Assembly: GCA_963575745.1 (NCBI GenBank)
Contig: CAUYUJ010000002.1
Location: 1,116,001 to 1,180,000, forward strand
From: Prorocentrum cordatum
Taxonomy: Eukaryota
DNA length: 64,000 bases
Direction of reading: 5' to 3'
Part shown: piece after piece, positions 4,314-59,116 of the stretch
How positions within the stretch are numbered: position 1 is the first letter of the stretch
Layout: each line of letters begins with the position of its first letter
The notes under the pieces: model-generated
Database searches by the model: none
Told to the model about the DNA's origin: nothing
What the model saw: the letters and a program-made list of their open reading frames with translations, nothing else
Program-made: the position numbers and the translations under genes

Positions 4314-7300
4314 TCAGTGTGTCAGAGCCCTCACTCCAGCACACCTCGTCGCTGACAGGCGCAGGCGTCCCTTCAGGAATTTCACTCCCCGAGGGTGAGA
4401 CAATAAATCACGAGCACGCAAATCATTGAAACTAGTGAGCACTAAGTCAGCAGCGACAGCAGTGGCATGAAACTCGCCAGTGCAAAAATACTCTCTAGTG
4501 TACATAGCAAAGCACGCCCTAGGGTCACACTTGCCCCACCAGTCAGGAAGAGTGGGAAGACAACGCTTCACTACTGGAACTACATAAGGGCAAGAAAAGT
4601 AATGTAATATATCATCAGCGCCACTACGACCGAAACGACATCCTTTACACGCTTGGCGATAACGAAGAGAAGAATGCATAGCATTGCACATGCATATGAT
4701 GATACTCAGACCACTCAAGCAGGGATATGTGTGACCCAGCTTGCACAAACGTAGAATAGCCAGGGATATCTGGTCGGGCGTGATGTGCACGTTCCAATAC
4801 CTGAGACGGGCACCTATCTTCTCCTGCAGGGGTTCAAACGGGGACAATTCAAGGACGACTTTTTTTTGAGCTCTCTCTGGATTTTCGGACACCCGAGAAC
4901 ACCATCATCCCAAGGGCGATTCTGGATATTCCGAGGAAGACTCCATACATAGTTCTATACATCAATCATCTGTTTCAGGGGGGAGTGTTGATAAAACTTG
5001 TTGGGCCTCCATCCCAAGATTAGGTCATCCCCCTCCCATGCCTCCTCCAACTCCACTTTACATCCCGAGAAGATCGGAGACCTTGCGGCATTCCTGTAGA
5101 GTGCAGCTCGCACTTCGTGCCACAAGGAGCGAGCGCTCCAGCTGTTGCTGAAGATATTCTTAAACTGGAACAAGACCGCATTCGGAATAGCATATCTCGG
5201 GCATGCTGTCAAGATCTGGAGGCCGCCCCTCTCGGCGCCAGTGGCTTCTTTTGGGGGGGCAAAGAAAGAGGCGATGAACAGGAGGGCGGAGATGGCGATG
5301 GAATTGCATGACATAATAGCTTGATGGAGGCCTCCAGCGAGGGAGTGGATGAAACGGCAGCGCTCGAGATAATTGGCGATCGGACTAGACCAGGAGCGTG
5401 CGACACTTCTGTGGCCCGGGTGGATGCCGAAATACTTGCCCCAATTCTGAATTGTAAACTTACGAGCGCGAATACCCTGGTCCTGGAATCTCCTCAACTC
5501 CTCCTCCCGGTCGACCTCCTGCCTGTAGAAGACAATGACGCATTTGGCAAGGTTCATCACTAGGCCTGCGCCAGGATACGCATCAGCACTGGCAGGGCTG
5601 TGTGCAAGTCCTGCGAGAAGAAGGCCATGTCGTCGGCGAGCGCGCTCAGCGAGCGCTGAGGGCTCGGCAGTCTGCTCTGAATCTGGCGCAGCACTGGATC
5701 GAGATAAAAGACGCATATACTTCCTGACATCGGGCGCCCCTGACGAACCCCACGGCCGATCTCGAACCCAGGAAACCGACGGCCCCCCAGGAGCATGCCC
5801 ACGGAGATTTTGCCGTGCAGAGCTCTGACGGAATTCAAGAAAAAGTCTGGAACACCCATGGTAGTCAACGCGGACTCGATCCAGAAATGCAATGAACTCG
5901 GGAAAGCCGCCTTCGCATCCAGGAGGGCGGAGCATGCGCTCTTGATGCGCTGCAAGATGCCATATCGCAACATGTTGCACTCGAGCATCAAAATGTTGTC
6001 AGACATCTGACGGGTGCGGACGAAGCCGTTCTGGGCCTCGCTGGCGCCTAATTCGCACTGGTCGGCGAGGGCTCCGTTCAAGCCCGAGCCTAAGATCTTC
6101 GCATCCGTGTTACTCAATGTTATCGGACGTACATTATCGGGGGCACGCCAGAAGCTATTCACATCTTCTTGGTGGGAGCCTTTGGGGATAAATACCATCA
6201 AACCATTGTGGAAGTCCTCGGCGAGAGGGGCGCCTGTCTGGAAGTGACAGTAGAGATCATATAGAGCATGAATAACAAATTCACCTCCGTATTTCCAAGC
6301 AGAGTAGCAGAGCCCGTCTGGGCCAGGAGCACAATCCCGAAAGCGGCTGATCATGTGGTGGGAACGTTCCCGTGATTGCTGCCATTCGACTGCAGGGTGG
6401 ACGGGCTGGATAAACGGGTCAAGCTCGGCGGCGACCTCGCGAGATGCTCCATCAGCACTATGTACTTCGGCCCAGCGGTGGCGAAGCGCATCCGCGCCTA
6501 CTTCAAGCGAAGGGAAATGTGACCCGTCAGGCGCACGAATTCCAGCGAGAGCCATCTTGCGGTTCCGAGGGGCCCAGGGTTGTACTAATCTTTGAATCTT
6601 GGCCATCCGCGCATCTCGAAAACGTTCGGGGGCGAATTCCTGCATCAACTCCTTCCTCTCTTCCTCAAGACCTCCTCTAGCCACCTCTCCCATGAGTTGA
6701 TGAAATCCATGCCTATCGATCCACATGCAGGTGTCCCTATCTATGAACGGGGCGAGCTTCGGCCAAATCTTAAAGGCAGGCTTGATCACGTGCTCGCGCC
6801 TGCTGTGCATGGCGCGATAGATGGTAAATAGCCATGGCAGATGCTGAGCGGCAGTCTCAAGAAAAAAAGGTTTGGTCTGCTGACGAATACGCGTAGCTCC
6901 AAGATGCGTACACTCTTTCATTTCTTTAACTCTGGTAGAGGGGTCCTCCGAGAAACCGACATCATCGATCACATGTTGTAGAGCGGCAGGATGCCAACGA
7001 TGCTTAGGGATCCAAGAAGGAACATAAGGATCTGAAGAGGGTCCAGAGAGCCCCAGAGAGGAATACGGAGCAGTATTCACTGGGGGGCCGAAGATCACAT
7101 ACATCCCAGACTGTGCCTGTTTGTGGATGATAGTCACACACGTCGGCTGTGTATGAGTTTGTGAAGATTCTGTCGATACGGGTTCACGCTTTGACGGTCC
7201 GTATGCCATTGTTCTCGGTAGTGATCCCGTGGGGGGGGGGGGGGGGGGAGCTGCTCTACCTCTAGCATGTCGGGGAACTAAACTTCAAAGAAGCGCGCGA

Positions 7301-8069: not shown

Positions 8070-9136
8070 CTAGATGAAGCCGTCGCTGGAGGTGCCCGTC
8101 GCGACCTGGATGAGCTTGTTGGCATCGTCGATGCTGATCCCCCACTCCTGGAGGTTGTCGATGTGCGGCTGGATGATGTACTGGTTGTCGCTCTCCTCGA
8201 TCGTCTGGAAGAGCACCCAGTGGTCGTCCATGCTGGTGTCGATTATGCAGAACTCGCCGCGAGCTCCGTTGACCCCGAGCTTGTTGGAGTCGATCGTCCA
8301 CTTTCCTATGATCTGGAGCTTGCTGAGGACGTGGGGCCATAGACGAGACAGCGTGCGCTGCCGAAGCCGTGCTTGAAGTGGCATATCTGGCCGAACGCGG
8401 AGAGGTGCCATTCTTTTGTGCGAGGATCGAACCACCCAGGTAGGTGTTCACTGGCCCAGGCGCGCAGGTTCTTTGCGTGCTGGTCATTCTCGCAGTGGAT
8501 GCTGTACGACATAAATACTTTGTGAAGCTTTGCGGATAGCTCCGTGCCAAGGGTCGGCTCGGTCTCCGCGATCTTCTGCTTGACTGCTTCGAAATGGTTG
8601 CGACGATGACTCTCTAGAATAGCACGTGGGAAGCCCCCAACCCATATTCGACAAGGGTCGATCTCATCATGACCCGCATTGGGCGGAGGGGGGCCTGCCT
8701 CTGTGCGCCTCATCCTAACTCTTGAGGCTGATGAGGGCGCTGTAGAAATAGTGGGTGCTGGACGAGACAGGGAGTTGAGCTGCTTCTGATGCGACGCGAC
8801 CTTCCCATCTATCATGGCTTGAATCCTGCTGAACTTCTCGGGGTCCTCCATCTGCTCGTCGGGAGATTCATGTTGTGTGCGCTTCTCCTCAATGCACTGC
8901 TCAAAACCATGGAATCGAGCCTCCCATGAAGTGCTTATACCCGTGATCATGGACTGCATGTCCTCGTAGGTCTTGGTCTGTGCCTCGCTCAAAACCCCGA
9001 TCGATGTCTCCATTGCTGCAGCACGATTCTGGTAGGAGTCGATCGCGGCGCGCATGGTGGGCAGCTCGGATGACAACTGCGCTGACTGGTTGTGTACGAC
9101 TGCCGTGAGCGCCTGAAGCGCAGCAGCGTCCGCCAT
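8070..9136 (-). pseudogene. LINE ORF1 (coiled-coil-like N-terminus plus RRM-like RIWVGGFP segment), frameshifted near 8400
   Basis: ATG at 9136 (MADAAALQALT). Lies immediately upstream of the APE domain and continues in ORF 8070-8435. Confidence 0.7.
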
Positions 9137-9271
9137 GGCGAGAAAGGCGGCGAAATTCTTCTGATTCAGAAGGCAAAATGCTCGCGAGAATCCTTCCTCC
9201 ACCCTGGGCAGGGCCACTGAACGGAGGGAACCCAATGTGGTCAACCTGGGCCAACCTCGAGAGATGTATTA

Positions 9272-9290
9272 CTTGAGCCAAAATGGCTAC
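9272..9290 (-). other. dinoflagellate spliced-leader (DinoSL) relic at the LINE 5' end
   Basis: Reverse complement reads GTAGCCATTTTGGCTCAAG, the last 19 nt of DCCGTAGCCATTTTGGCTCAAG. Confidence 0.92.
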
Positions 9291-9621
9291 AAATGTATGG
9301 GAGGAGGAGGAGGAGGAGGAGGAGGAGGAGGAGGAGGAGGAGGAGGAGGAGGAGGAGGAGGAAGAAAAAAAAAGGAAACGCAGGCCAGGCCCGCGGGGCC
9401 GCGGATGCGGCTGTGTTTCCCGCCCACAGCGACCCCCTCCGCACCGACGCGGGGAGAGGGCCCCGCCAGGGCCTCGGCCACCCGCGCCACGGCCGAGACC
9501 GTGAGCTCGCAGCGCTTCTCCGGCAGCCGCCCCCGCGCTGGCATCACGCACCTCCCCGGGGCGGGTCGGGAACGTCCTAGAGGGGGGCGCCCACGAGGAG
9601 GGTTCGCAAATCATGGCCCGT

Positions 9622-10105: not shown

Positions 10106-11069
10106 AGAAAATTACTCCGACGGTAAGACCCCACATAAGAATATGTTTTCCTTGCCTGGGGATCTTCCCGTGCCCCCTCGCTTCTCCCACCTACTCCTGC
10201 CTCCTCCTTTTCCTCTTTCCTCCTCCTCCTCCTGCCTCAACCCTGCCTCCTCCTCTTGCGTCGTCCACCACCACCACCTCCTCCGCCTCCTCCTCCTTTT
10301 CCTCCTCCTCGTTATGCCTCCTCCCCCCATCCCCCATGCTCCTCCTGCCTCCTGCGTCCTCCTCCTCCTCCTGCTGCATTCCTTCTCCCTCCTCCTCCTT
10401 CTCCTCCTTCTCCTCCTTCTCCTCCTCCTCCTCCTCCTCCTCCTCCACCTCCTCTCTCCATCTTCCTCTTCTCCCTCTCCCTCCTCCGTCTCCACCTCCT
10501 CCTCATCTCCATCTTCCCCCCCTCCTCCTCTGCCTCCCCCTCCTCCTGTTTCCATATTAGGTGTCCCGCCTCCTCCTGGGGACTCTTGGGGCCTCTTGGG
10601 GCCTCCTGTAGCCTTCTAGGCCTCCCGGGACATCCTGGGGCCTCCTAGGGCACTCCTCTTCCTCCATGTCCTCCTCGTCCTTTTCGCCCTCGGACTCTTG
10701 GGGCCTCTTGGGGCCTCCTGGAGCCTTCTACTAGGCCTCCCTGGACATCCTGGGGCCTCCTAGGGCACTCCTCTCCCTCCATGTCCTCCTCGTCCTTGTC
10801 GCCCTCTGTTTCCTCCTTTTCCTCCTCCTCCTCCTCCTGCTTTTCCTCCTCGTCTCCATCTTCCCCCCCTCCTCCTCTGCCTCCCCCTCCTCCTGCTTCC
10901 ATATTAAGTGTCCCGCCTCCTCCTGGGGACTCTTGGGGCCTCCTGTAGCCTTCTAAGCCTCCGGGGACATCCTGGGGCCTCTTAGGGCACTCCTCTTCCT
11001 CTAAGCGCCGGAGGACGACCCAAAATAAGCGCGCGCTGGAGGACGACCCGGAGGAAACACGAGAGGTAC

Positions 11070-12071
11070 GGGCCCCATAGGGACGGGGGTTCCCGCCTGA
11101 GCCTTCCTCACAGTTCACTCACAGTCGAGGCTCCCGCCTGATACCTCCCCCATATTCAAGCCTCAGGAGCGCAAAAATGACGACAGATACATGTTCGAGG
11201 ATGACCCGTTCGGATTGCCAACATGACCTGCGGGCCCCATAGGGAGGGGGCTTCCACCTAAGACTTCCTCACAGCTCACTCACAGACGAAGCTTCCGCGT
11301 GGTGCTTCCTACAGATTCAGGCCTCAGGAGCCCAAAAGTGACGACAATTACAAAATCGAGGATGACCCGCTCGGATTACCAACGTGACCTGCGGGCCCCA
11401 TAGGGAGGGGGCTCCCGCCTGAGACTTCCTCACAATTCACTCACAGACGAGGCTCCCGCCTGATACTTCCCCCATATTCAGGCCGCAGGGACGAACGTTA
11501 CAGGTTCGAGGATGATCCGCTCGGATTACCAACATGACCTGCGGGCCCCATAGGGAGGGTGCTCCCGCCTGAGACGTCCTCACGGTTCACTCACAGATGA
11601 GGTTCCCGCCCAATACGTCTCCCATATTCAAGCCTCAAGAGCTCAAAAGTGACGACACTTACAGGTTCGAGGATGACCCGCTCGGATTACCAACGTGACC
11701 TGCGGGCCCCATATGATATTTCCTTAGAGTTCACTCACAGACGAGGCTCCCGCCTGATACGTCCCCCATATTCAAGCCTCAGGAGCCCACAAATGACGAC
11801 AGTTACAGGTTCGAGGATGACCCGCTCGTATTACTAACGTGAAAACGCATGCCCCATAGGGAGGGGGCTCCGGCCTGAGACTTCCTCGCAGTTCACCCAC
11901 CGACGAGGCTCCCGCCTTATATTTCCACCATTTTCAAGCCTCAGGAGCCCAAACATGACGACAATTACAGGATCTGGATGACCCCTTTCGATTAATAACA
12001 TGATCTGCGGACCCCATAGGGAGGGGGCTTCCGCGTGAGAGTTCCTCGCAATTAACTCGCAGACGAGGCTC
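11070..12071 (+). repeat. ~160-bp tandem repeat array, left half (about 6 units)
   Basis: CACAGACGAGGCTCCCGCC-type anchor recurs at ~11121, 11282, 11443, 11593, 11737, 11898 and 12059. Confidence 0.92.
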
Positions 12072-13150
12072 AAGCCTTTTACGCTGGCTCAAGGCTCAAG
12101 CCTTTTACGCTGGCGCAAATTTTTGGCTCAAGCCTTTAACGCTGGCTCAAGGCTCAAGGCCACTCGAGGGCTTGGCTCAAGAGCGCTCCTGCTCCGATAC
12201 CGAGCTCACCCTGCTCACATCCGATACCCTTACTTCACTTTTCCCTCACATCCTACCGTTTGCCCTATCATCTGTTTCTCTCTTCTCTGCCCATTGCGGA
12301 CCGACGCCTGCCATGCCGGCGAGCGCGCGGCAGCCAGGCACCCCAGTGCGTGGAGTGCTAGGCGAACGTGAAGTCCGGCAACGCCTTTTCAGTCCACTTC
12401 ACGAAATGGACGGCCTGGATCATTCTCCGCCACGTCCGGTGGAGGTGCAGATATCTACACCGGCAGCTCCAGGTACCCCGCCCGAGGCATTGGCAGATGA
12501 ACGTTCCTCAGGAGCATCTCGGCCTACCTTGTCTCAGATTGCGGAAATCGTGAAACAACAGATCCAACCCGTGCAAAATTCGATTTTGGGTTTGGAGCGG
12601 GCAATGTCGGATTTGGGAGGTTCGCTTGAGTCGAGAATGGCATCCACAGAGACTCGTGTTGAGGACATCGAAATCCGCATGGCGAGCATCGAGAATGAAA
12701 TGCCCACCGACTCGAGGGGCTCCGGCGCAGGGTCCCAGACGGAGGAAAAAGTCCGGGAACACATCAAATCATTTGAGGACGAGCTCGCGAACTTCAAACT
12801 GGCAACATCCATGCCGACAGCGACCCCATCAGTGGACAATTCACGCTCTCTTACTGCCGTCGTCGGCGGCCTGAAAGACTGTGGAAACACCGACGACGCC
12901 TGCAAGTTGGTCGGTGACGCTCTTTGGAGCAAGTGGGCACCCTATCCTGTTGACCACTACGTCAAGGGCGAGTTCACCGGCATCCTCTTCTTGAAGTTTA
13001 CTTCTAAATTCGACTGGGACATCGCAGTGAAGACCCTCAGGGAGGCAAACATCCAGCACGGCTCCCACAACGTCTGGGCCAAACTGGATCTTCCTTTCGC
13101 TGTGCGTATGCACCAGTCGTTTCTTTTCAGCGTCAAGCGCATGATGACTG
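12067..13150 (+). mobile_element. 5' part of an RTE-like LINE: stacked spliced-leader relics, 5' UTR and ORF1 N-terminal portion (ATG 12313), interrupted at 13150
   Basis: Seven GGCTCAAG copies at 12067-12181 (one preceded by TTTT). ORF with coiled-coil-like stretch and TAVVGGL...GILFLKF...VWAKLDLP (ORF1-like) that loses coherence after FSVKRMMT. Confidence 0.8.
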
Positions 13151-14538: not shown

Positions 14539-14946
14539 ACGCCGTCGTCGTCGTCTCGACCTCCCCCCCATGCATCGTCATCCTTTTCCTGCCTCTCATC
14601 GTGCTTTACTGGCTATGATCCGCTTGCTCCTGCCGTATCCTCCTCCTTTTCCTGCTTCCCTCTCCTCATGCTCCTGGTGCCTTTGTTCCTCCTCCATATC
14701 TTGCCTCCTCCTCCTCCTCCTTCCCTCCTCCTCCTATGTTACTAGCTATGATGCTGGCTATGCTTCTCGCTATGTTACCCGCTATGCCACCCTTCGCCCG
14801 CGCGTTTCGAGAACGGGGCCCTGGCCTATAGGGAGGACGTTGTGATGTGCAAGTGTTTCAGCCATCATCAGAGTCACTGCAACGTTCGACCGCGCTAAGC
14901 CGTGTTCCGGCGCTTGCCTGACCGTCTGTCATGCTTGCGCCACCGG

Positions 14947-17920
<2,974 letters not shown>

Positions 17921-17944
17921 GCTCCTGCGCGGAGCGGGGGTCGG

Positions 17945-17987
<43 letters not shown>

Positions 17988-17993
17988 GGGGGG

Positions 17994-18040
<47 letters not shown>

Positions 18041-19889
18041 AAGGAGGAGAAGGAGAGGAAGGAGGAGGGGGAAGATGAGGAACATGGGATGGGATAAGAG
18101 GACAAGGAGGAACAGGAGGAGGAGAAGGAGAAAGTAGAGAGTGGTGCGGCTGTCCTGGGCTGCGCAGCACAGGCAGCGTTTTGAAGAGCAGGGGCGAGTC
18201 CTGCGGCGGGGCGGGGGCCGCGGTCCGGACATTTCCCATAGGGCCGAGCGTTCATCCGAATGCGTTTTGACGGTCCAAAGCTTTTTGACGGCCCCAGGGT
18301 CCGAAAACGCACCCCTCAACAAAAAACGAGCGGTGGAATGCAGCGGAGGGCAGTTGAGGGCAGCGGAGAAGGTGGCGGAGAGGGCAGTGGAGAGGGCAGT
18401 GGAGAGGGCAGCGGAGAGGGCAGCGGAGAAGGCAGTGGAGAGGGCAGCGGGGGAAGGCGGGGCAAAGTGGGGGGGCAGTGCAGGGTAGTAGACGGCAGCC
18501 ATGGAGAAGGGGGCAGCGGAGAGGGCAGCGGAGAGGGCAGCGGAGGAGAGTGGAGGGCAGCCATGGAGCAGGGGGCAGTGGAGAGGGCATTGGAGACGGC
18601 AGTGGAGGGCAGCTACGGAGGAGGGGGCAGCGGAGAGGGCAGTTGAGGGCAGCGGGGCGCAGCGGAGAGGGCGGTGGAGGGCAGTGGAGGGCAGCCGTGG
18701 AGGAGGGGGCAGTGGAGAGGGCAGTGGAGGCCATTTCAGTGGTGCAGCCTGGCAGTGTGGCATTATGTCTCCTCCTCCTCCTCCTCCTCGCCCTCCTCCT
18801 CCTCCTCCTCCTCCTCCCCCTCGCCCTCCTCCTCTTCCTCCTCCTCTTCCTCCTCCACCTCCTCCTCCTCCTCTTCCTCCTCCTCCTCCTCTTGCTCCTC
18901 CTCAGTCCCCTCCCCCTCCTTCTCCTCTTCCTCCGTCCCCTTTTGGGGTTCCGCCAATTAAACTCGGTGGAGGCCAGTCGCCTCCAGCCTAGATAGCGCG
19001 CGCGCGTCATGCAATCGGGGTGCTCCATCCTCTCCCTCTCCTCCTCCTCCTCCTCCTTCTCCTCCTCATCATCCTCCTCCCCAGCATCCTTCTCATCCTG
19101 GTCCTCCTTTCCGTGTCCCACACGCTCTAACACTGACCGAATGTCTCCATCATCTTGTCATATTGCCTTCTTATCCTTCTCGTCCCACACCCTCATCATA
19201 CTTCCTCAAACCTCCTCCAATATCATCCTGCCTCCTCCTCCTCCTTCTCCTTGCCCTCATCCTCATCCTCCTCCGCTTACCTCCTCCTGCCCCCCCCCCC
19301 ATCTCCTCCCACTTCATCGCCCCTCTGTCACCTCCTCCTCCGCCGCCTCACCCCGGAGTCTAGCTAGACGTCGTATGGGTGCCCCAGCGCCCTGCATTGA
19401 AGGCGACGCCCACTAGCCAGCAACGCGTGCAAATCGAACGCGTCGCTCGATTCGGCGTTGCACCCGACGGGCGGAGAAGGGGCGGTCGAGCGGGTCGAGG
19501 AGGGAGAGTAGCAAGAAAGCTAGCAGCGCCGGCGTTGCATGCAGGGCGACCCTCGGACGCACTACGCGGGCCACTCAAAAACCACGGGAGAGGTGTGGAA
19601 TGGCATGTGCAGAGGAGATGTTTGGGAGTAGGTGGTAGTAGGCAGCAGGGGTAGGAGCATCCCGAGCCAGTGTAGTGTTGGCCCGCGCAGCTTTGAATTC
19701 ATTCAGAATTGAGCGCTGACATCCCGATGCCCTCAGAGCTCACGCTGCCCCAGCTCCCGCGGCCGGTTTGCTGCCCGACGCCGACCCCTTTCTTCCCTCG
19801 TCCTCAGAAGTGGTGGAGTGGGAGTTTGGATGAGGAGGCAGGGGAAGAGAGGAAAGAGGAGGAGGACGACGAGGAGGATAAAGGGAAGA

Positions 19890-22475
19890 AGGGCCCCAGC
19901 CTGGCGCTTCTTCACGTTGAGAATGGCCTTCGCGTACTGGTTCTTCTTCTCCCAGAGCTCCAGCATCTGCGTCGCTTTCCCCTCGAGCACCTTGCACTGG
20001 GTCTCGTGGGCCTTGTTCTGCGAGACCAACCCGAAGGACTGCGTGTAGACCGACTCCAAGGCGTTGCCGATCTTCTCGAGCTGGTCCGCCAGCTGATCGT
20101 TCACGTTCAGGAGCCGCACCGTGATCGTCTGCTTGCGGCGCGTCCCGACGGCGGTGGAGACCTTGCCCATGAGCGCCTTCGCCTCCTTCACCTTGTCGGT
20201 CGGGCTCATCGGGGTGCCACCCTTGCCGCCAGTGCATCCGGCACCATCGCCACCCGCTTCTCCCGCGCCACCCGCGGCGCCGCCCGCGCCTCCTGCGCCA
20301 GCAGCCGGCTGGCCCGCCGCGTCGGCGTGGCCGCCCGCGCCGGACGCGTCGGCCTTGCCGTTCTGGACCTTGCCTTTCTTCCCTTTGCCCTTGCCCTTCT
20401 GCGACTTGCCCTTGCCCTTCTGGCTCTGGCCCTTGCCCTTGGACCAGTCCCACCAGGCGCCGTCCTCGTATTCATCGTCGTCGACGTCCATGTCCGCAAT
20501 GTCAGCGAAATCCGAGAAGCCGTGCATGCCGCCGAAGGTGCCCGTGCTGCCCAGGCTCCCGGATATGGCCGCTGCATCGTCGCGATCCTCAATCGCGATC
20601 ACTTGCTCGAGCTCCACCTCCTCGGAGAGCTCGCGGTGGAATACGATGGCCTCCTCGTCCAATATCCAGTACATCACTTTCTCGTCATCTTCGGGGACGA
20701 GGGGGCCCCTGGTGACCCTCTTCTTCTTCTTGCAGTCGGCCATCACCTTGAGGACGTACGCCTCGTCGTTGTGGAACTTATTCATCAGATCCTGTTTCGT
20801 CATCTTCAAATACTTCCTGGATGCGTCCTGGAGGTTCCTGAGCTTCTTCCTGGTAACTAGCTCGAGCATCTCCAGGTTCTCACCCTGCTGGAACCAGTCC
20901 TTGAACAGGTCTGCTTTTTTCCCAGCGTCCTTGAAACGGGCCACGAGGTCTGGGTGTTTGGCTTGATTCTTGGGATTCTTCATCGCACGGCATAAGCGCA
21001 TGTCCGCGTCCCTCTGCAAGGGGGGCCTCCAGGACTTGGACTCAACACAGCCCTGAAGATGACGAGCCCCAGGGCCGACGACGTCCAAGAAAACTGCAAC
21101 TTGAGGCTGCCCCCCACGAGCTCAGAACATTAAGGGGGGCAAGCTCGGGATGTCGGAGGGCCGCCAGGCCAGCCATATAGGCAGAGCGGTGCGCGTTGGA
21201 GTTGAGGTCGATGGGCGCATCTTGCTGGTCGTGGCCGTTGATGCTCTCGGCGCCCTTCCCGCTGCCAGCGCCGCCACTCCCCCCGGAAACGTCGGTCATC
21301 GATGGCGACGCCAGCGTTGCGGCTACATCCGCTGCTATTGGCGCATGCGCGTTCTTATCCACCTGCTGCCCCTTCGCGAGTTTCGCCTCCAGCTGCTGCC
21401 CGAGCGCCTCCGCCTGCGCGTCGAACTCCGCGAGTGCCCTCGCTCTGTTCGCAGCCTCCTCTGCATCCTTGGAGGCCTGCATCAGAGATGTCGCCGCCTG
21501 CTCCCGCCCTGCTGCCGCCTCAGCCTTCTGCGCAGCCGCTGCCGCCTCAGCCGTCTGCGCAGCCGCTGCCTCCTCAGCCGTCTGCACAGCTGTTGCTTCC
21601 TCAGCCTTCTGCGCAGCCGCTGCCTCCTCAGGCTTCTGCGCAGCCGCAGCCTCCTCAGCCGTCTGCGTTGCCGTTGCCTCCTCAGCCGTCTGCGCAGCCG
21701 CTGCCTCGTCAGCATTCTGCGCAGCCGCTGCCTCCTCAGCCGTCTGCGTTGCCGCTTGTGCTTCGCACGGGCCGGTTGCCGCTGCCACGGCTGCCGCTGT
21801 CGCGGCGTCCATTGATGCTATATCAGCCACTGGCCCAGCTGCGTCACCTGCCGTGGCGGCTGCCAGCTGCGCCGCATCCGTCACCGCCTCGACCTCCTTC
21901 GTGCCCAGGCGCCTCGCGACGCGACGCGGCCCCTTCCCATCCACCGCAGCGGCGAGCGCCTCGTCCGCCGAAGCGGGCACCTCCTCCACCTCGGCGGGCA
22001 CGCCCTCCCCCGCAGCGGCGGCTGGGGCCACGCAGCCCGCGCCCGGGACGCGCCGCCTCGGAAACAGCTGATCGATCGGAATGCCGCGATTGATGGTGGG
22101 CGCGAAGACGCTCGCTGGAGGGATGTAGACGGCCCCCTCGAACGAGCCGACCGCCGCGACGGGCGCCTCATCCGAAGCGGCGGGCGCGCCCTCTGCGGCG
22201 CACGCCTCCTCGAGGGGGCATGTCCCCGCGCCGTCCAGCATGTCCGCAGCCGCCGCCTGCTGATCAAAGACCTCGGCCTCCGCCTCCAGCGCGGCCATGG
22301 CGCCCCAGGCCGAGGGGTCGACCGCAGCTTCGGCAGGGGCATTGCCAGAGCCCGCCGCGCCCTCGCCGCCCATGATCGCGTCGACCTCGGCGCTGACATC
22401 GCTGCTCATGCCGAAGTTCGCCGCCGCGTCGTGCTCCGGGACTCCAGCCTCCATGACGTCGGCGACGGCTTCCAC
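19890..22475 (-). CDS. companion gene A, unknown function (Ala/Glu-rich N-terminus with 10-aa AAQTAEEAAA repeats, conserved-looking central domain, KG-rich linker, helical C-terminus)
   Basis: Two long GC3-rich ORFs (21042-22475 and 19733-21088) joined by a probable intron at ~21175-21010. Central motifs LFKDWFQQGEN, MTKQDLMNKF and PLVPEDDEKVMYWILDE. Confidence 0.72.
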
Positions 22476-23877: not shown

Positions 23878-24997
23878 AGGGGATGAGGGATGGGGGGAGG
23901 GGGGGGGGGGGGGGGGGGGACGGGATGAGGCGCGAGGAGGAGGAGGAGGAGGAGAGAGGGGGGGGAGAAGGAGCAGGAGGAGGGGGGGGGGAGGAGGAAG
24001 GAGGAGGAGGAGGAGGAGGTTCATTTGCATGCATAATACGAGGATGAGGGGGATGGGGGGAGGAGGGGAAGGGGGAGGAGGAGGAGGAGGAGGGGGGGAT
24101 GAGGAGGAGGAGGGAGGGAAAGGGGGAGAAGGAAAGGGGGAAAAGGAAAGGAGAGGACTCAAGCCCAGGTCGCCCCAGAGACAGACGCGGCATCGCTCCA
24201 GTCGTCCAGGTCACCGTCGACCGCGGGGGGCCCGCTCGCAGTCCTTGGGGGCTTGGGCGGCGGCGTCACGGCGAACGCGGCCATGCGCTTCTTCTCGAGG
24301 GCCTCGTTCGTTCGATCAGACCGCGTCAGCATGTATGTTTCGATCTCGTCTGGCACTTGATCAGAGTGAGGCGGCCAGGCCGTCATTCACTGCACCGCGA
24401 CCCACCCGCGACCCACCCGCGACCCGCCTGCGACGCACCCCGCGACCCACCCGCGGCCCACCCGCGACCCGCCCGCGACGCACCCCGCGACCCACCCGCG
24501 ACCCGCCCCGCGACACACCCGCGACCCACCTCGCGACCCAACCCGCGACCCACCCGCGACCCAACCGCGACCCACCCGCGACCCACCCGCGACCCACCCG
24601 CGACCCACCCGAGACCCGCCCCGCGACCCGCCCCGCGACCCACCCCGCGCCCGCCCCATCATTACTATCAGCATTTGCGGGGTGTTACGTTTGGTGCCCA
24701 TTTCGTCCCCATGACCTCGCATTGCTGCCACGCCTGGCACGCGTCGACGAACTCGCGCCGTGCACGTTTGCGTTCATACGCATCATACCGTGCAAACGCC
24801 ATGCCCATCGTGTGTTCATCCGTGGTGACCACCTTGGGCCGCGGGACCTCGATGGGAGCCGAGTGTAATGATGTTGGCAGCGATCGTATCTACCATGTCG
24901 GTTCACCCCATAGCTCCAGATATAACTGCGCAGCCCTCCTCTTTATCGCTCTGTCCCTCTCTCTCTCTCTCTTTCTCTTTCTCTTTCTCTCTCTCTC

Positions 24998-26352: not shown

Positions 26353-27252
26353 AGGAAGCAACGCCACAACGGCAGCTGCGCTGACGACGACGACGACGAC
26401 GACGACGGCGCAGGCACGGAAAGGCCTCGCTCCATCCGACGGGGAGCCCGAGAAAAAGGACGGGGAGGAGGAGGAGAAGGATGAGGATGTGGAGGGGCAG
26501 AGGACGGGGGGGGGGATTGGGGGGGGGCGACGAGACACGTCGCCACTCTGAGCAAGGGCAGCACCAACATACGCAGATGGCGGAGGAAGGGGAGGAGGAG
26601 GCAGGGGGCGGAGGAGAAGGACTGTGCATCTCCCTCGCGTGGTTCACTCGGATGATGGAGGATGGAAGAGGGGGAGGCATGAGGGGGGCGAGTGGCACGG
26701 TCCAGCTATTCAGATCGCTCGCTACATGGCGCAGTCACACAGTTGCTACTCATTTCCTCACATCGGCCCTCGTCGCCCCACGCTTGCGTAGCACCCCGCA
26801 ATTGCGCAAAAGAGTGAAATGGCGGGTCGCGGGGTGGGGCGCGGGGTGTGTCGCGGGCGGGGCGCGGGTGGGTCACGGGTGGGTCGCGGGCGGGTCGCGG
26901 GTGGGTCGCGGGGCGCGTCGCGAGGCTGGTCGCGGGCGGGTCGCGGGTGGGACGACGACGACAATAACGACAAACCCAGGGGCAGTGAATGACCGTTCGC
27001 CCCCCTCATTCTGATCTCATCTACAATTTCAATTCTCGCTGCGCGTGCTCCCGCAGCTGAGCCAGTAGGCGGCCGGCGCGAAGGAGGGTGGAGAGAGATA
27101 AGGGGGACAGAGGGAGTGCGAAGTGGTGGGATGATGGGGATATGTGCAAGCTGAGACTGCATCGGCATAGGGATGATGATAGTAACGGTGATGATGCTGA
27201 TGACGATGGTGGTGCCGATGTTGCTGATGATGTTGGCGTTCACTCCACTCCG

Positions 27253-28375
27253 TCATGCGATCGCAGCCATGCATCGCAACACAGCGATCGCGTTGCAGAG
27301 GTCTGCGTCATCAAACAGGGGGCCGCAGTCCATTGCCAGCACACTGTCACAGTTTACATTTCCATCGCCAGGGATATGTGCAGCGCCAGGGTGCATCCTC
27401 CAGTTCTCGCGGTATACCGCGGCGACGCCGTGGCCGAACGCCATCGGATACGATTGCGTACTCTTGAGGCCTGGGCCGCCGTCTACACAGCGGCGCCCAT
27501 CACTGCGCACATAAGTAATCACGATATCACCGGTGCTTTCTGGAAGCCAGCTCTGGGCGCGGTACCACCACAACATGTTTTGAAACCAAGGAACTGCACT
27601 GTATACATAGATTGGCTTGGCGGTAGCAGCACCGAAGTACCCCAAGCACTCCCGCACTTGGTAAATAGGGGCGCGCGTGAGGAGCTCTTGGAACTTACAG
27701 TACCTCTCCATCAAATAGTCGGTGGGTTGCTCGAGCGCCACAACCACTCCGCGCGCCTGCAGGATCCGCGCCCACGCGAACGTGGCTACCAGGCACGCTA
27801 TGGGTCAGGATGGTTCGTTGCATGCAATCACGACCAGGGCCACGCGATTGGGGCGTTTTGGACCATGGGGCACATGGGATGTTCTGGAGCTGGGTCGAGG
27901 CGTCAGCCGTGGCCATCCAGATTAGGAGCACGCATCGGGACACCATCTCATTCCCATAAATTACAGACGCACTTGGCAGAAGGCCGCCCGGATGGGCAAG
28001 TGATCGGTGCGTGGGCCCAGTTGCCGCCCGTACCCAGCTGGAGCAAAGCGGGGCGAACCAGCAAAAGCCGCGGGCACGAATGCGCAAACATAGTACCAAG
28101 GCGAACAGGACCCCAACATCGCTATTGATATCTTGAGACGCCCCGTTGTCGATGTCGAAGGTGGTTCCCACGAACCCGTTGGACAAGAAGCCATTCGCGA
28201 TGGCTGCCACTCCAGCGAAGACCTCGAGAAAGTCGAGGTCGGTGTAGCACCGCCCCGCGAGACCAGCACTGTACACGAGGATGACCAGCTGACAGGCAAC
28301 AATGGGGGCACCGAGCGCCATCAGGCGCGACACTAGGAGAGCTAAATCTTGCGCGTCCTCAGCTGAGAGTGGCAT
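27253..28375 (-). CDS. C5 cytosine DNA methyltransferase-like protein, 2 exons (28375-27908, 27756-27253), 323 aa, apparently intact
   Basis: Motifs in canonical order: FLEVFAGVAAI (I), TFDI (II), QDI (III), WFAPLCSSW (IV, catalytic Cys), LEQP (VI), AKP (VIII), QSYPMAFG (X). A GC...CAG intron at 27907-27757 joins the two ORFs in frame. Confidence 0.78.
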
Positions 28376-40099: not shown

Positions 40100-42145
40100 T
40101 CAGCGCGCCTCGGGCAAGATCTTTTGCAACAGTGTAACGTAGAATGTTGGTCCCGCGTGCACGCTTTTCGCAGCTGTCCCCATGACTCGGTTCTCCTGCT
40201 CGTCCGCATATGTCCAATAAAAAAGGGGGTTGCCCTGGGTACTTGCTCTTTTGGCAAGGTCCCAGGCCACGTGAAACTTATACGTTTCGTGGCCGCCCCA
40301 CGCCTTCCACTCGCGCAGAGCTGTCACGATGTGGTTCTGGAGCTGTGAGAGAGCAACTGGCGGCATTATGCGGGGCGACCGTTTCATGGCGACTTCCATA
40401 TCCACGAGCGCCGAAACTACGCGGCGAAGGTGCCGATGGCCTGCGCCGAGAAAGCGCCAATTCTCATCCGCTAAAATCCGAATGAAAGGCATCAGTCTCC
40501 GCGTTTGTGCAGCTTTCGCCTTCAGGCGGGGGCACGCGCCGCCAGCATTTAGCTGGTTGTACTTTAAACGGTTGATTATTGAATGCTTGCCACGCGGCAC
40601 ACGGCGCATTCTATAATGCGCCTTGAGGCGCCTGCGCAAATGAACCATGTTATCGACCCGCCGCCGCTCCACAGTGGGTGATGGGGGCCCCCAAGCACGC
40701 CTTTTGACGATAATGGGAATGGAGATCGAGGGCAGTACGTCGGATGAGGAGCAATGACCAGAGGATCTCAGAAGTGAGAGGAGCAGGTAGGTTGCGAACT
40801 CGGCATGCGTGCGGGCCCCCGTTCTTCAGCAGATTGCGCAAAATTTGCGTCAATTAGTTTCAGCATGACCTCGCCAGCAACATATTGGCTGATGCCGAGG
40901 TCGAAAACGCGCATACAATCGAGGTGAAGACAATCGACACTAAACCCTCTGATGGTGAACAGCGGGCTCCAGAATTTAATGTTGGAAGTGTTTGCAGCGT
41001 TGAAAAACGTGAGCCAGCCTGGCATATCCACGCCAATGGACCCACCTGTGCCCACGAGGGCGTGCCAATCAAGTAGGTTTTCGTCGCAAATGACGATCCA
41101 CCCCACGGGCAAATGAAGTTCTGGAAACGGCCTTACCAGCGCAAAACCACCATATTTGCGCGAAAGCTCCATGCACCTTAGAAGCCTGCGCAGCTGGGCA
41201 CGACTTTGCACGCACCTTTTGGTCACGCACGCCCCGAGGTCATCATTAAAATCGCTACGCTGGCGGGGGCGCCAAGGGCAGAGGGCCAACGTGCGGGCAA
41301 AATTAAACATATCAGCGCGGGATGCGTTGCAACAAAAACATGGGTGCTGAACGTGCGTCCAATTTGTAAAACCGAAACAAGAAACATATTCTAACAAGTC
41401 TGCGCGATACTCCACGAGAGCGCCATATTTCCCGAAGGGGAGGCCGCGGTGGAGCTCGCGAAGCTCTTGGGAAAAAGGCTTTTGGTTGTGGTCCAGGGAC
41501 GGAAACGCGCCAGCGGCGAGCGCCGAGAATGACCAGGCGATCACCTTTTGTATTACTTGCATCGTGCACCACCCTTTGCACGAGCACTGGCAAAGGTCAG
41601 ATTTTTTAACAGTGCAAATCAAATGTCGTTTTCTGTTGGGATCCACAGCCGAACTCCAATACCAGCAAATAAATGAATCTGTTTTCGAGAACGGAACTCC
41701 GTCTGAGTATAGCGTGAGAGGAACGGTGTCTGCGTGTCCTCTTTCTAAAACAACAGGGTGCGAAGCATGCGTCCCAGGCAAATCATTAATATCAACAGTG
41801 TTGAAATCTGCAGGACGTTGCTCCAGCAGCTCGAAAAACCTCTCGCGTGGTAAGCTGATGGGGGAATCTTTATTCAAGTATCTCGATTCCGTATGTTTGC
41901 TCCACATGGGAACGGCACACGTGTAAAATGATGCAGCACGTCTCTCACCCAGTGCATGCCTAATGTGCTCAGCATAGTGCCCACGACCCGGAGCGCGGGC
42001 TAAGTCTTCAAGGCCAGTGCCCCCTGCAAAACCGCTGGGGTGTTCGCATCTTCCAAATGCAAGGGGAGGGGTGAAAAGGAAGTGTGCAGGGGAGAGGGGG
42101 GATGAGTGGAGGACAGCGATGAGGGAAGAGACAGGGAGAACATAA

Positions 42146-42201
<56 letters not shown>

Positions 42202-43752
42202 TAAAAAGAGGGAGGTGGGGGATGGAAGATGCTATACTCCACGGGGCTGGCCTGCATGAGTGACGTGGTGTGCTAGAATGCACACGTCAGTGGCCGTCCA
42301 GAGGCCACGGCGGTACCTGTCCACCACGTACTCTCGGAGGCCAGATCCGTTGCTTCGGCGGTTCAAACACAGGGCCCTGACAGACGGGATCTAGACGGGA
42401 TTTAAAACCTCATTCGAGGGGAAGGTCACCTTACCGTCCCTTCCTACAAACAGGTTTACATGTGTATACGCACACGTATGTATAGATGTATGTACATACA
42501 TTTGTACATACATACATGTGTATATATATAGATATATATATATGATATATATATATATACATAATCATGTATACGTATATACATATATGTGTATACAGAC
42601 ATACATACACACATACATACATACATACACTCGTATACAAACCACATCCCTCGGACCAGGGCCCTGTGGTTCAACCGCCGACGTGCCCTGGCCTGCAGTA
42701 CCAGGATCGCCACCCCCACTGCCTCCAGCGCCCACACCAGGAGCGCGACGCGCACTGCCTCCAGCGCCCGCACCAGGAGCGCGACCAGCACTGCCTCCAG
42801 CGCCCGCGCGACCCCCTCCACCTCCAGCGTCGGTGGAGAGCAGGGCTGCAGCGGCGCGGGCTGACATGTGTGAACAACGACAACGTATCGTTTGAAACCG
42901 AAACGCTTACGGACAAACCCAGTGAAACCGAACGCTTGAAGTGAACAACCACAACGTATTGTTTGAAACCGAACGCTTCAAGTGAACAGCCACAACTTAT
43001 TGTTTGAAACCATGGTATCCTATCAGTTCTAGCGTCGATGGCCCCAGGATGCGCGCAGTGACGATGCAAGTTCCTTGAACTCCCCTAGCTGGAACTTGTC
43101 CCCACCTGGTCAGCAAAAGCAAGTATGCACAGGTACGCATTGGAACAGCACACATCTTCAAGATGCAGCATGATTGCATTTGATGATGGATGTGGCGAGG
43201 TGTTCAATGATGTCTCCCCCCCCTCCTCCATGCGAGGTATAGAGGCCCCCAGCTCCCAGGGAGGTGTCACCAAACGTTGTTGACCCTGGGACCCCTCTCA
43301 AAAACAGAATTGGCTCCTCCACTCCACGCCTCCATAATATGATGTGCGTATGTCCACTGGCATCCCTTCTCGCCCCTCGTTAGTAGAACTGGGGATGGGT
43401 GATCAGCAACACTTGGAGTGCCCGCGCGAGCGTATTCGGGACGACCCACGTAGCACCATTAACGAACTCAGTGCAGAGCATTCTGCAAGGATGCCTGCAC
43501 CAGTACGGGAGGTGAAGGAAGGAGCGTCAGGGGGTCGGGCGGGAATGGTTGGATGGGGATCGGGCGGGCGAGATGATGCTCCACCAGCTGAGTGCCACGC
43601 CCTCCTCAGACAATCAAGCTGGGAGGGTACTTGCAACCAGGGCGTGTAAACACTACGCGTGGAGGTACACTAAACTTGGAAGGAGGAGAATGATGATGAT
43701 GGTGATGATGATGATGATGATGCTGATGATGATGATGATGATGATGATGATG

Positions 43753-52217: not shown

Positions 52218-53451
52218 AGCTCCTCTCACCCTCCAAAAATGAAGGGGGCTATGCGGAGCCGCGGGGGCGCTCAGCTCCACCAGTACACCACCAGTAGTAT
52301 ACGTCGCCTGGTCAGGGCACGATTGAGGTAGAACTGAGGGCATGGGAAGGAAGAGGTGTAGAGGATGAATGTGTGAGAGTAGGAAGCAGGGATGGATCTA
52401 GCAGGAGGAGGAGAACTCTTGCAGAAAGGCGTAGGAGTTTATATCGATGGAGGGCGGAGGGGAGGGACGAGCGAGGAGGTGAACACGAGGAGTGGGAGGC
52501 GCACGTCGTGGAGAAGGCGCTCGAAGAGGAGTGAGGAAACTAATCGTGTATGTATGTACATATATATATATATATATATATACATCACAGGACTGGGGAT
52601 CGAGGGGATAAGCATGGCCCGATGCTGGCCTGGGCCATGCCACGGCCCACACGTAGCAGGTCATCTTCTCGATGTGTCGTCACCTCTGGGAAGGAATCAT
52701 GATGATGCACATGGCAGATGTGCACCGAAACTCCGTCAGCTGGGGCCTCAGGAAGATAAGGGTTGCAGGCGTAAGGAAGGCTGGAGCACCAGCAGCAGAT
52801 GAGAGCAGAAGGATGCGGATCGATGTAGACCATTCGCTGCTTTGTGATGTCAGGGTCGCGTGGGCACAGATTTGCCCACGTGACCCTGGCACCACAGGGA
52901 GATGCTACGAACGTGTAGATTTTGAAGTTCAGTGCTCCCGATCATCCTTATGTGCTTCTTCCCCTCCACCCTCCTCCGAGCTCGTCCTTCCCAGCCCCAT
53001 CCCGCGCTATCTTATGCTTGTCTTCCTCCTCTCTCCTCCTGCTGGCATTCCTCTCTCCTCCTTATATGTCTCTTCCTCCTCTCTCCTCCTTATACTTCTC
53101 TTCCTCCTCCTCTCTCCTCCTTATACGTCTCCTCCTTCGTCCTCTTAGGCCCAGGATCTCACCTAGGATCCACTGGGGGAGCGCAGCTCGTTCACAACAC
53201 TGTTCCTGTACGAGCTCACGACAGCCTTGGTGACGGTCGGCTTCTCGATGATCTTCTGCATGACGTACTTCGGGGTCATGCGGGGAGGAGGCGGAGGGGG
53301 GGGATGGCATTGACGATGGGAGGTGGGAGTTGGAACTATACGAGGGATGAGGACGGTGGGTCATGGGAGGACTGAAAGGCTGCAGGAGTGGGAGGAAACA
53401 AGGGCCCGTGTAGCCACGAGCCCCGAAGAGGGAGGACGGTCTGAAATAGTC

Positions 53452-53551
53452 NNNNNNNNNNNNNNNNNNNNNNNNNNNNNNNNNNNNNNNNNNNNNNNNN
53501 NNNNNNNNNNNNNNNNNNNNNNNNNNNNNNNNNNNNNNNNNNNNNNNNNNN
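53452..53551. other. assembly gap (100 N)
   Basis: Run of n characters. Confidence 1.
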
Positions 53552-54014
53552 GGGGGGGAGGGAGGAGGGAGGGAGAGGCAGAGCAGCGGGGCCCGCCGCC
53601 CCTGCTGTCAGGTGCGCGCTGGAGACGCAGAAAGTCGCTGCACCTGACGAGTGTGCCGAAAGGGCGTCATGGAGCTACCTATGGGGCCACTGCAAAAAGA
53701 GACGCCCGACGACCATTGCCTAGCGACGTCCGACGACGACGCCCGACGCATTGGGGGTGAGAGGAGAATAATATTCATATTGAGCGCGTGTAGAGGGGGG
53801 TGCGGCGGGCGCGCGAGGTTTCCATTCGGAACGGCCGAAGACGTTCCGAATGGGAACGCGCGAAGGAAACGCCATTTTGGCTCAGCGCGGTTCAACCGCG
53901 GCTCAGGCTAATTACAAGTTGGCCTTAGGCCTCTAAAAGCGTGTGTAGTCGGCGCAACGATGCTGTTACATGTGTGCAATCGACGCAACGACGGCGTGAA
54001 CGTACCTCCGGTGC

Positions 54015-57100: not shown

Positions 57101-58234
57101 GCTGGTCAGCGTAGATCTGCGCAAAGCATTTGACAGGGTTGAACAGCCGGCACTGTTCCGCGCTCTCCAAGCGCAGGGACCCCCCTCTGGATATTGCCAA
57201 ATATTGCGAACGCTGTACAAATCTCAAACAGGTGTCTTGGGTAAGGATTTCTGGTTTCCTATCACCCGGGGCGTCAGACAGGGCGACGTACTATCTCCGC
57301 TCCTGTTCAACAGTGTCCTGGAAGCTGCTATCCGCGAGTGGAAGGCGAAGCTGAACGGTCATGGCCTGGCTGTCTGTTCGGACGGAAGCAAGGAGCGTCT
57401 GTCGAACATTCGTTTTGCAGACGATCTGTTACTATTCGCCAGCAGTGTGGAAGGGGCTGTGGACATACTAGACATGCTCACGCAGACGCTTCGCAATTAT
57501 GGTCTGGAACTCAACGTGAAGAAAACGAAGATGTTGTCGACGACGGTCACGGATAATGACACTGTTCTGATCGAAACAGCCGATGGGTTCGTGGGGCTTG
57601 TGGCTGCTGACAGAACCCACAAATACCTCGGGAGGGCGTGGCCGGGCAACCTCCGACAACGCGGACAGGCTGCTATCGACCATCGCGTTTGCTGCGCATG
57701 GTTGAAATTCCGTTCTCGGCAAACTTCGCTGACGAATAGGCATGTCAAAGTCAAGCTGCGTCTGAAGCTCTTCAACGCGACCGTTACACCTACGTTGGTA
57801 TACGGGCTTGAAACTTGTGCGTTGGATCAGAAGCAGCTGGACCACCTAGACATTACGAAGAGGAAAATGCTCCGGCGAATGGTCGGCTGGGTGTTCGACG
57901 ACAGCGATTCGTGGGAAGATGCTGGCCGCAGAATGAAGCAGAGGCTCGAATCTGCCAGGCGCCTGCACTACATTGCAGATTGGTCTTCGGTTGTATCAAA
58001 CTGCAAGAAGCATTTACTGAGTCGTCTGATGTCCCACCATGCTCCGTCGCCGCCAAAACTAGCGCACGAATGGTCCCCTACTGCATGTGCGGCGCTGAAC
58101 AACAGCCGGCCGCATCGTACCAGAGGCCGGCCGCGGCGTCGTTGGTTTGACGACGTGCAGCTCTTACGGCGCATTGTTTGTTTTTTTCCCCCGAGCTCTG
58201 CACAGGGCCGACTTGTTCGATCGGACTCAACGCA
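54114..58234 (+). mobile_element. 3' part of the RTE-like LINE: ORF1 C-terminus, APE, RT and C-terminal RGRPRRRW, with stops and frameshifts
   Basis: ORF1-like tail GCDRKSAWADLD...KGAGKGKRK. APE: WDCICHSE, GVALLIH, GGDFN, LDYVMV, GSDHRAV. RT: WRPIAILSV, VDLRKAFDRV, GVRQGDVLSPLLF, RFADD, KYLG. Stops at ~56254, 56794 and 56824. Short CTCAA-like tail, then the satellite resumes. Confidence 0.9.
54657..55750 (+). mobile_element. 5'-truncated CRE-like non-LTR element (REL endonuclease plus 3' UTR) nested in the APE domain of the RTE-like LINE
   Basis: RRPADVYLP, AWDFA, YEEFK, FTFPSMAVEARGGG and QRLSVSLHRENA. The APE reading frame stops at KAVSG (~54655) and resumes at AHIRIGRH..ISVYVQH (~55753). 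Confidence 0.82.
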
Positions 58235-59050: not shown

Positions 59051-59116
59051 ATTTCCTCAAGTCTGGGTGTGTGAGTGAGTGAGTGAGTGAGTGAAGAAAT
59101 GCTGATTATGATGACG

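Follow-up and report, generated by a model that had tools for sequence, protein, structure and literature searches.

A stretch of 64,000 nucleotides from Prorocentrum cordatum (contig CAUYUJ010000002.1 of assembly GCA_963575745.1, positions 1,116,001 to 1,180,000; hereafter the window, in which position 1 is the first letter) carries on its minus strand an intact gene of 323 codons in two exons. On balance, the evidence favours the view that the product of this gene is a member of a large, unnamed branch of the cytosine-5 methyltransferase (C5-MTase) fold that is very divergent, and that the gene is a fixed part of a transposon-like unit of several genes. The family of related proteins exists and is under coding constraint, its predicted fold is closest to that of C5-MTases, and several divergent loci, like the window, have its genes in the same order with a transposase-like gene. 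An earlier note had described the gene as a C5-MTase-like cargo of a DNA transposon; its observation is confirmed, and its interpretation is partly supported.

The two-exon gene and its protein family

The first open frame of the gene begins with an ATG at 28375–28373 and continues to 27908 (156 amino acids, P0001). It is followed by a GC donor at 27907–27906 and an AG acceptor at 27758–27757, and a second frame (27756–27253; 167 amino acids, P0002) ends with a stop codon at 27255–27253. When the exons are joined by their coordinates, the coding sequence has 972 nucleotides, comprising 323 codons and a single terminal stop. GC donors are common in the introns of Symbiodiniaceae. The parts of the gene, and the repeats next to it, are as follows.

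27908–28375, minus strand: exon 1, 156 codons, with the motif I-like LEVFAG, FDI, QDI and the catalytic-type APLCSSW
27757–27907, minus strand: predicted intron of 151 nucleotides, with GC donor and AG acceptor, whose excision leaves a gap-free join against relatives
27253–27756, minus strand: exon 2, 167 codons and a stop, with LEQP, G.FG....KP, LK.TQ.YP..FG and a C-terminal D.A.L...A.L helix
28479–28764, no strand: tandem repeats with periods of 31–51, immediately 5' of the start codon

On full-length relatives of 290–360 amino acids, the two exons abut without a gap (...VSRCVLLIWMAT followed by ARGVVVALEQP...). In a database protein that is 81% identical (P0003), similarity to the family ends at the same residue (...LLIWM) and unrelated sequence follows, which fits an intron at the same position. 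The uninterrupted protein of 323 amino acids that the earlier note had obtained by splicing a GC-AG intron is thus confirmed, both by the coordinates and by the gap-free join, and the C5-MTase motifs read in it (LEVFAG, FDI, QDI, APLCSSW, LEQP, KP and YP..FG) are all present in that order. A contig from a DNA sequencing run, about 97.6% identical over 876 nucleotides, spans the intron unspliced, as expected of genomic DNA, and no spliced joint was found in four runs with DNA contigs. Since the window is GC-rich and contains 114 stop-to-stop frames of at least 180 amino acids, the length of the frame alone is no proof, and the case rests on homology.

With exon 1 alone, 1180 representative proteins (clustered at 50% identity) are retrieved at E ≤ 1e-3 from a library of 1.84 billion proteins; 171 of these remain at E ≤ 1e-10. 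A word-index homology search with exon 2 gave no match. Many members of the family are found on contigs of 1–2 kb with just one full frame. Of 29 positions with at least 80% conservation among 71 relatives, 27 are retained in the window protein, all the catalytic-type residues among them. The cysteine, which is codon 111 in the window protein, is present in all 71 relatives, as are the glycine of motif I and one arginine that follows it; the phenylalanine of the same F-x-G element after strand 1 is conserved in 96%. The acidic residue after strand 2 is D or E in all 15 alignment rows that cover the column. After strand 5, E-Q-P is 97–99% conserved (the glutamate in 97%), and the lysine of K-P is conserved in 97%. 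These near-invariant residues are those expected for covalent chemistry at C5 of a pyrimidine (cysteine after strand 4, glutamate after strand 5) and for binding of S-adenosylmethionine (SAM; F-x-G after strand 1, acidic residue after strand 2).

The structure was modelled for a relative, P0040, and not for the window protein itself. P0040 has 324 amino acids, is 37% and 32% identical to exons 1 and 2, respectively, and was modelled with an alignment of 73 rows (predicted local distance difference test score, pLDDT, 95.5; predicted template modelling score, pTM, 0.93). Every row listed by Foldseek for this model is a C5-MTase, namely DNMT3A/B/C, DNMT1, DIM-2, MET1, EhMeth and DNMT2-type enzymes. 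In a VIA-align comparison with 48,161 chains, ranks 1–16 are likewise all C5-MTases (Z 10.0–8.5), with M.HhaI at the top (Z 10.0, root-mean-square deviation 4.3, 201 residues aligned). The order of strands in the model places the conserved residues at C5-MTase motifs I, IV and VI. The earlier note had proposed to check for a Rossmann-type C5-MTase fold, and such a fold is indeed predicted for the family.

Profile-profile comparison with 21 bacterial PF00145 proteins, E. coli Dcm included, gave a probability of 50% and an E-value of 1.6e-4. It pairs (EF)FAG with (L)FAGxGG, DI with DI, and x-C-S (CSS) with P-C-Q. A low-confidence extension, together with an alignment to Dcm alone, pairs EQP with ENV and G.FG....K with GVPQ.R, so that the lysine of K-P sits opposite the R of GVPQxR; the C-terminal 120 residues have no confident alignment with the C5-MTase profile. 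A neighbour cluster in the ESM-Atlas (score 0.97) bears the automatic name DNA (cytosine-5-)-methyltransferase family protein and serves as a lead only. The protein is best described as a distant C5-MTase-like enzyme set outside the Pfam family PF00145, which would act as a methyltransferase on a substrate such as DNA cytosine.

The recurring gene order and its counterpart in the window

Loci were retrieved with a pattern made from the AP[VLT]CSSWV stretch of the family, which yielded 48 metagenome loci. An all-against-all comparison of frames in the long loci revealed a gene order in which all genes lie on the same strand: a gene called here gene A (frame groups g00 and g01), the MTase-like gene (with g02 as its last exon), a gene for a lysine- and glutamate-rich (K/E-rich) protein (g03), and a transposase-like gene (g04–g08). 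Nine distinct loci show this order as far as each contig extends. Six loci have at least 6.5 kb downstream of the MTase-like gene, and in five of these (L035, L038, L040, L041 and L044) exons of the transposase-like gene lie on the same strand 5.4–7.2 kb downstream. The order therefore recurs in several divergent loci and, as described below, in the window, and the linkage of homologues to transposase genes that the earlier note had proposed to test is borne out in these loci.

A conserved domain of some 100 amino acids (LP.EA.P...G.HSYTL...G..LEVLL.K.AFFVK...G...W....AW..AK..GF), for which Pfam gives no match, forms the C-terminal end of gene A. In L003, L004 and L006, which are intronless loci, this domain is encoded immediately upstream of the MTase-like gene (E about 1e-7); in L015 and L007 it adjoins that gene. 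Loci with the domain are L003, L004, L006, L007, L015, L027, L038, L041, L044, L046, L048 and L049 (for example, L044:1872–2333 and L015:2178–3737). No usable Pfam match was obtained for 34 neighbour frames of the intronless loci or for 23 frames of the conserved groups.

Coding constraint extends over the whole unit. Between L038 and L044, the proportion of synonymous differences (pS) is 0.72–0.90, near saturation, against a proportion of non-synonymous differences (pN) of 0.18–0.27 in six exon blocks that span all four genes; a seventh block of 15 codons has pS 0.59 and pN 0.43. Pairwise identities of the MTase-like and the transposase-like proteins are correlated (Spearman 0.75, over 15 pairs that are not independent). 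Similarity at the DNA level is confined to exons, so the boundaries of the unit cannot be read from alignments of the loci. The complete loci have a GC content of 42–46%, against 59% for the window, and intron positions vary between lineages. Together with the exon-only similarity, this shows that the unit is old and is present in different kinds of host.

The source of the loci was also considered. The spliced-leader motif of dinoflagellates is absent from all 82 loci, and four pattern matches among viral contigs (IMG/VR) yielded none that was confirmed, hence no evidence for a viral source. The sole match in a prokaryotic genome, L049, lies on a contig titled as a metagenome-assembled genome of Cyclobacteriaceae. 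It was rejected as a bacterial relative, since its gene is split by introns and has neighbours of eukaryotic type. The contig (330 kb, also holding L050 and L052) carries an intron-split unit of gene A, the MTase-like gene, g03 and g04, and two PF00145 matches elsewhere, and looks like eukaryotic DNA that was binned into a bacterial genome.

In the window, profile matches on the minus strand occur in the order of the unit from 28.4 to 14.9 kb, beginning with the MTase-like gene at 28375–27253.

19937–20971, minus strand: stretch like the K/E-rich gene (g03), profile against frame 19736–21121(-), E 4.2e-5, in two stretches
17621–17848, minus strand: N-terminal part of the transposase-like gene (g04), profile, residues 352–427 of frame 17543–18901(-), E 4.6e-4
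16130–17167, minus strand: transposase-like core (g05–g07) with HSDG, TGD, C..C and D.LH..YLG motifs, profile g07 E 1e-10
14898–15282, minus strand: C-terminal part of the transposase-like gene (g08, NPR...(D/E)E motif) in two frames, profile E 2e-7 and 7.9e-4
40103–42390, minus strand: second transposase-like gene, whose frames 40771–42231 and 40103–40825 align to the full length of relatives of 541–690 amino acids

Searches with tblastn place g05 at 16966–16811, g07 at 16639–16331 and g08 at 15108–14992. A word-index homology search with the frame at 16.1–17.2 kb gave no match. Frames 16130–17167(-) and 40771–42231(-) are 22% identical (BLASTP E 2e-5). Upstream of the second transposase-like gene, the window lacks an MTase-like gene. 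This second gene is 97% identical to P0166 over 98% of the query region, and a frameshift or an intron near 40.8 kb divides it between two frames.

Nine relatives of the transposase-like proteins, of 331–690 amino acids, were collected, and the window frames and locus exons align along them. One of them, P0168, was modelled (pLDDT 75.8, pTM 0.71). With this model, Foldseek ranks 1–35 are all RAG1 or RAG-like, and the following matches were obtained with VIA-align, where unrelated folds reach Z ≤ 6.7.

RAG1 core: Z 14.8, 427 residues aligned
Amphioxus ProtoRAG transposase: Z 13.4, 429 residues aligned
P-element transposase: Z 10.8, 271 residues aligned
Transib transposase: Z 10.0, 300 residues aligned
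ISCth4 transposase: Z 7.5, 241 residues aligned

The linked protein family is thus predicted to fold like known transposases, with the RNase-H-like core of the CACTA-Mirage-Chapaev-Transib group.

The remainder of the window contains few recognisable genes. Among 117 long frames, Pfam found only two reverse transcriptases and an endonuclease fragment of long interspersed nuclear elements (LINEs) and low-complexity matches.

5563–7284, minus strand: LINE reverse transcriptase
56847–58286, plus strand: LINE reverse transcriptase
55693–56253: LINE endonuclease fragment

There is only one copy of the MTase-like gene in the window, and simple repeats are abundant in the DNA around it. Just downstream of the gene, arrays of an 11-nucleotide unit (CCGCGACCCAC and its reverse complement) at 24395–24645 and 26821–26951 form an inverted pair. 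A satellite of about 160 bp occurs in two arrays (11069–12078 and 58231–59056) that are 79–87% identical, have the same orientation and lie 46 kb apart; the second directly follows the frame of a LINE reverse transcriptase. At 9272–9292, on the minus strand, a 21-nucleotide stretch matches the dinoflagellate spliced leader with two mismatches (from 100 shuffles, none was expected). The stretch, which lies near a LINE reverse transcriptase and just upstream of the open frame 8309–9268(-), looks like the relic of a retroposed, trans-spliced mRNA and supports the assignment of the window to a dinoflagellate. An assembly gap of 100 N lies at about 53.4–53.5 kb, within frame 53062–53607(-).

A proposed transposon-like unit and its alternatives

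The explanation that we judge somewhat better than even is that a divergent C5-MTase-type enzyme is a fixed gene of a transposon-like unit of several genes. The unit would measure at least 13 kb and carry, on one strand, gene A, the MTase-like gene, the K/E-rich gene and a transposase-like gene of the DDE type, whose fold class is RAG1/Transib/CACTA. It would represent a family of cut-and-paste DNA transposons that encodes its own DNA-modifying enzyme, and it would be able to move. With SAM as the methyl donor, the enzyme would methylate DNA cytosine at C5, presumably in the DNA of the element itself or in host DNA nearby. The purpose might be to damp or time transposition, or to match a host genome in which CG methylation is already heavy. 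Several results weigh against this explanation. They concern the state of the window's copy, the ends of the unit and the chemistry of the enzyme, and are given below with the alternatives on which they bear.

Firstly, the window's copy may be incomplete, and it is conceivable, if somewhat doubtful, that it is an inactive relic whose frame is still open in a truncated element with an impaired enzyme. Gene A was not detected in the window by profiles or by a motif scan, and the surroundings consist mostly of simple repeats. Codon 170 is Tyr in the window's copy, while it is Ser in 93% of relatives and in the close copies from sequencing runs X1, X2 and X3; codon 304 encodes Phe instead of Trp. 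The acceptor G at 27757 is altered in the closest copies, those of X1 and X2, the contig that spans the intron unspliced among them, and the X1 copy differs from the window by 13 non-synonymous and 5 synonymous changes. This suggests that some close copies, at least, may be decaying. The listed sequencing runs that carry the gene include no RNA run. The window's copy nevertheless has 323 codons without a stop or frameshift and keeps nearly all of the conserved positions, catalytic-type residues among them, and the X3 copy differs from it by more synonymous (15) than non-synonymous (11) changes. As a separate observation on these copies, C>T or G>A changes account for 13 of the listed differences from window positions 27319–28353 in each of X1 and X3, with only 3 of the 13 in CpG.

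Secondly, the unit could be a conserved cluster of host genes, in which a domesticated RAG1/Transib-like transposase is combined with an MTase-like family of the host and which is no longer mobile or never was. The search of the window and the loci for terminal inverted repeats and target-site duplications was negative within the ranges covered; it drew on a single available copy per genome, the ends may lie beyond those ranges, and short termini are indistinguishable from chance. When the window was compared with itself by BLAST, dispersed inverted repeats were absent from the vicinity of the unit; the 4222 inverted 13-mers that link 9–15 kb to 28.4–40.7 kb are of low complexity without exception, and the inverted pairs seen in the loci are no more than chance would give. 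Two sets of candidate termini were rejected: the window's long inverted pairs are matches between simple repeats, and a 27-nucleotide pair of 78% identity near both ends of L041 is within chance. No transposase family of Pfam matches the window frames at E ≤ 10 or the nine relatives at E ≤ 1, PF18759 (Plavaka) included. Plavaka was suggested only by a lead in the ESM-Atlas (rank 29, score 0.92, 159 shared features), which fits the fold group and is not a test of it. Furthermore, L027 extends 6.7 kb downstream without the later genes of the unit. The strong constraint on all genes of the unit between L038 and L044 is what host genes would show, and the exon-only similarity of the loci and the many short contigs with a single full frame would also suit a host family.

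Other features speak against a host cluster, which we regard as unlikely. Divergent copies with the same gene order (L028, L039, L042, L044 and L048) are distinct loci on contigs that share one sample prefix, although DNA of more than one organism may be present in a metagenome sample. At 50% identity the family comprises 1180 representatives; lineages differ in their intron positions, and a second transposase gene, related to the first but lacking an MTase-like gene, is found in the window itself. Mobile elements typically form diverging lineages of multiple copies with variable partners. The earlier statement that the gene lies inside a DNA transposon found no support from terminal inverted repeats or target-site duplications, and draws on the conserved linkage to a transposase-like gene instead of mapped ends. 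The idea of captured cargo does not fit: the gene looks instead to be part of the conserved core of the unit, in the company of two other conserved genes of unknown function.

Thirdly, the enzyme could combine the C5-MTase fold and covalent cysteine chemistry with a target other than DNA cytosine, such as RNA (as for DNMT2), or could transfer a carboxymethyl or hydroxymethyl group. Motifs IV, VI and VIII depart from the consensus of DNA C5-MTases: P-C-Q, E-N-V and Q-x-R-x-R are replaced by x-C-S (C-S-S-W in the window), E-Q-P and K-P. Around the motif IV cysteine, the Pro position is variable and Gln has become Ser. With these canonical motifs replaced, the substrate could differ. PF00145, against which the earlier note had proposed to compare the gene, matches neither the exons nor any of 73 relatives at E ≤ 1, while the same profile readily found bacterial enzymes, in 27 of 41 genomes; no Pfam family at all matches either exon at E ≤ 10. 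Searches of PDB sequences with exon 1 and with the family profile returned nothing relevant. The best Foldseek E-value is 2.1e-3, with no match at E ≤ 1e-3, and the margin in VIA-align is modest, Rossmann dehydrogenases coming next at Z ≤ 8.2 as against 10.0, although the two structure searches agree and rank C5-MTases first consistently. DNMT2 enzymes and an entry of cytosine C5-carboxymethyltransferase type are among the tied structural matches (Z 8.6–9.2). The best structural matches are, however, DNA enzymes (M.HhaI, DNMT1, DIM2 and DNMT3), and the linkage to a transposase fits a DNA substrate, so that another target appears improbable.

Finally, the proximity of the MTase-like gene to a transposase by chance, through a one-off capture or simple adjacency, might be suggested by the 9–10 kb or so of repeat-rich DNA between both genes in the window, but it is contradicted by the same order and orientation in five of six far-reaching loci, with g03 and g04 conserved too, and is very improbable indeed.

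Comparison with known systems

Canonical C5-MTases of the PF00145 family (M.HhaI, DNMT1, DNMT3 and DIM-2) are the best structural matches of the family model. Motifs I, II, III, IV, VI and VIII are collinear in the two groups, and the nucleophilic Cys and the Glu of motif VI are kept. In contrast to these enzymes, the family lacks a PF00145 match, has x-C-S-(S/T)-W, E-Q-P and K-P as its forms of motifs IV, VI and VIII, contains a helix between motifs III and IV, and has a small C-terminal part. Identity in structural alignments is about 8–12%. Published surveys of DNMTs in dinoflagellates and marine protists used the PF00145 profile (PMC5890265, PMC9998398). Given a large family that this profile does not detect, the counts of MTase-type genes in such genomes may be too low. 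If the more speculative reading given below is true, enzymes of this family, with its 1180 representatives, might have a share in the unusual, genome-wide methylation that dinoflagellate-type genomes show.

The transposase-like partner is similar to RAG1 and ProtoRAG, which align to the model of the linked family over 415–434 residues (Z 12.7–14.8), and to the P-element and Transib transposases (Z 10.8 and 10.0). It differs from all four in that identity is only 9–11%, and in that the linked family has neither a Pfam match nor identified termini, heptamer-like or other. The linked family adds to the RAG1/Transib-fold proteins a set without Pfam match, and it bears on the history of this group of transposases.

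Mobile elements that encode cytosine methyltransferases have been described before. In line with the earlier note, DNMTs are known from retrotransposons of Symbiodinium: de Mendoza et al. 2018 (PMC5890265) describe SymbioLINE-Dnmt, SymbioDIRS-Dnmt3 and also charophyte retrotransposons with DNMTs. These elements resemble the window's unit in that a mobile element encodes a cytosine-MTase-type enzyme in a dinoflagellate-type genome, and self-methylation was proposed there too. They are, however, retrotransposons (reverse transcriptase, tyrosine recombinase), and their DNMT is usually within or fused to the open reading frames of the element, lacks introns and is detected by PF00145. In the window, by contrast, the partner is a DDE transposase-like gene, and the enzyme is a separate, intron-containing gene that PF00145 does not recognise.

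A second precedent is provided by DNA transposons of fungi, Plavaka included, that carry TET/JBP genes (PMC12730594). As described there, these are large cut-and-paste elements, some of the CACTA-Mirage-Chapaev-Transib group, with a separate gene that acts on cytosine methylation, and relatives that have this gene coexist with others that lack it, much as the two transposase genes do in the window. Their hosts are fungi, and their termini and target duplications are defined, unlike those of the window's unit. The enzyme of the fungal elements removes or oxidises the methyl mark, whereas that of the window's unit would be of the writer type.

No description of an MTase-bearing cut-and-paste element of this kind was found by full-text searches of the literature outside subscription journals, supplements and Repbase. 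It is tempting to speculate, with odds that we would place short of even, that the unit represents a widespread new lineage of eukaryotic cut-and-paste transposons that combines a RAG1/Transib-fold transposase with a divergent C5-MTase-type enzyme, gene A and a K/E-rich protein, and that such an element writes its own DNA mark. If true, this would permit a direct test of whether self-methylation serves transposons as a means of regulation or concealment. Beside the DNMT retrotransposons and the TET/JBP transposons of fungi, cut-and-paste elements with a fixed writer of the MTase type would then stand as a third kind.

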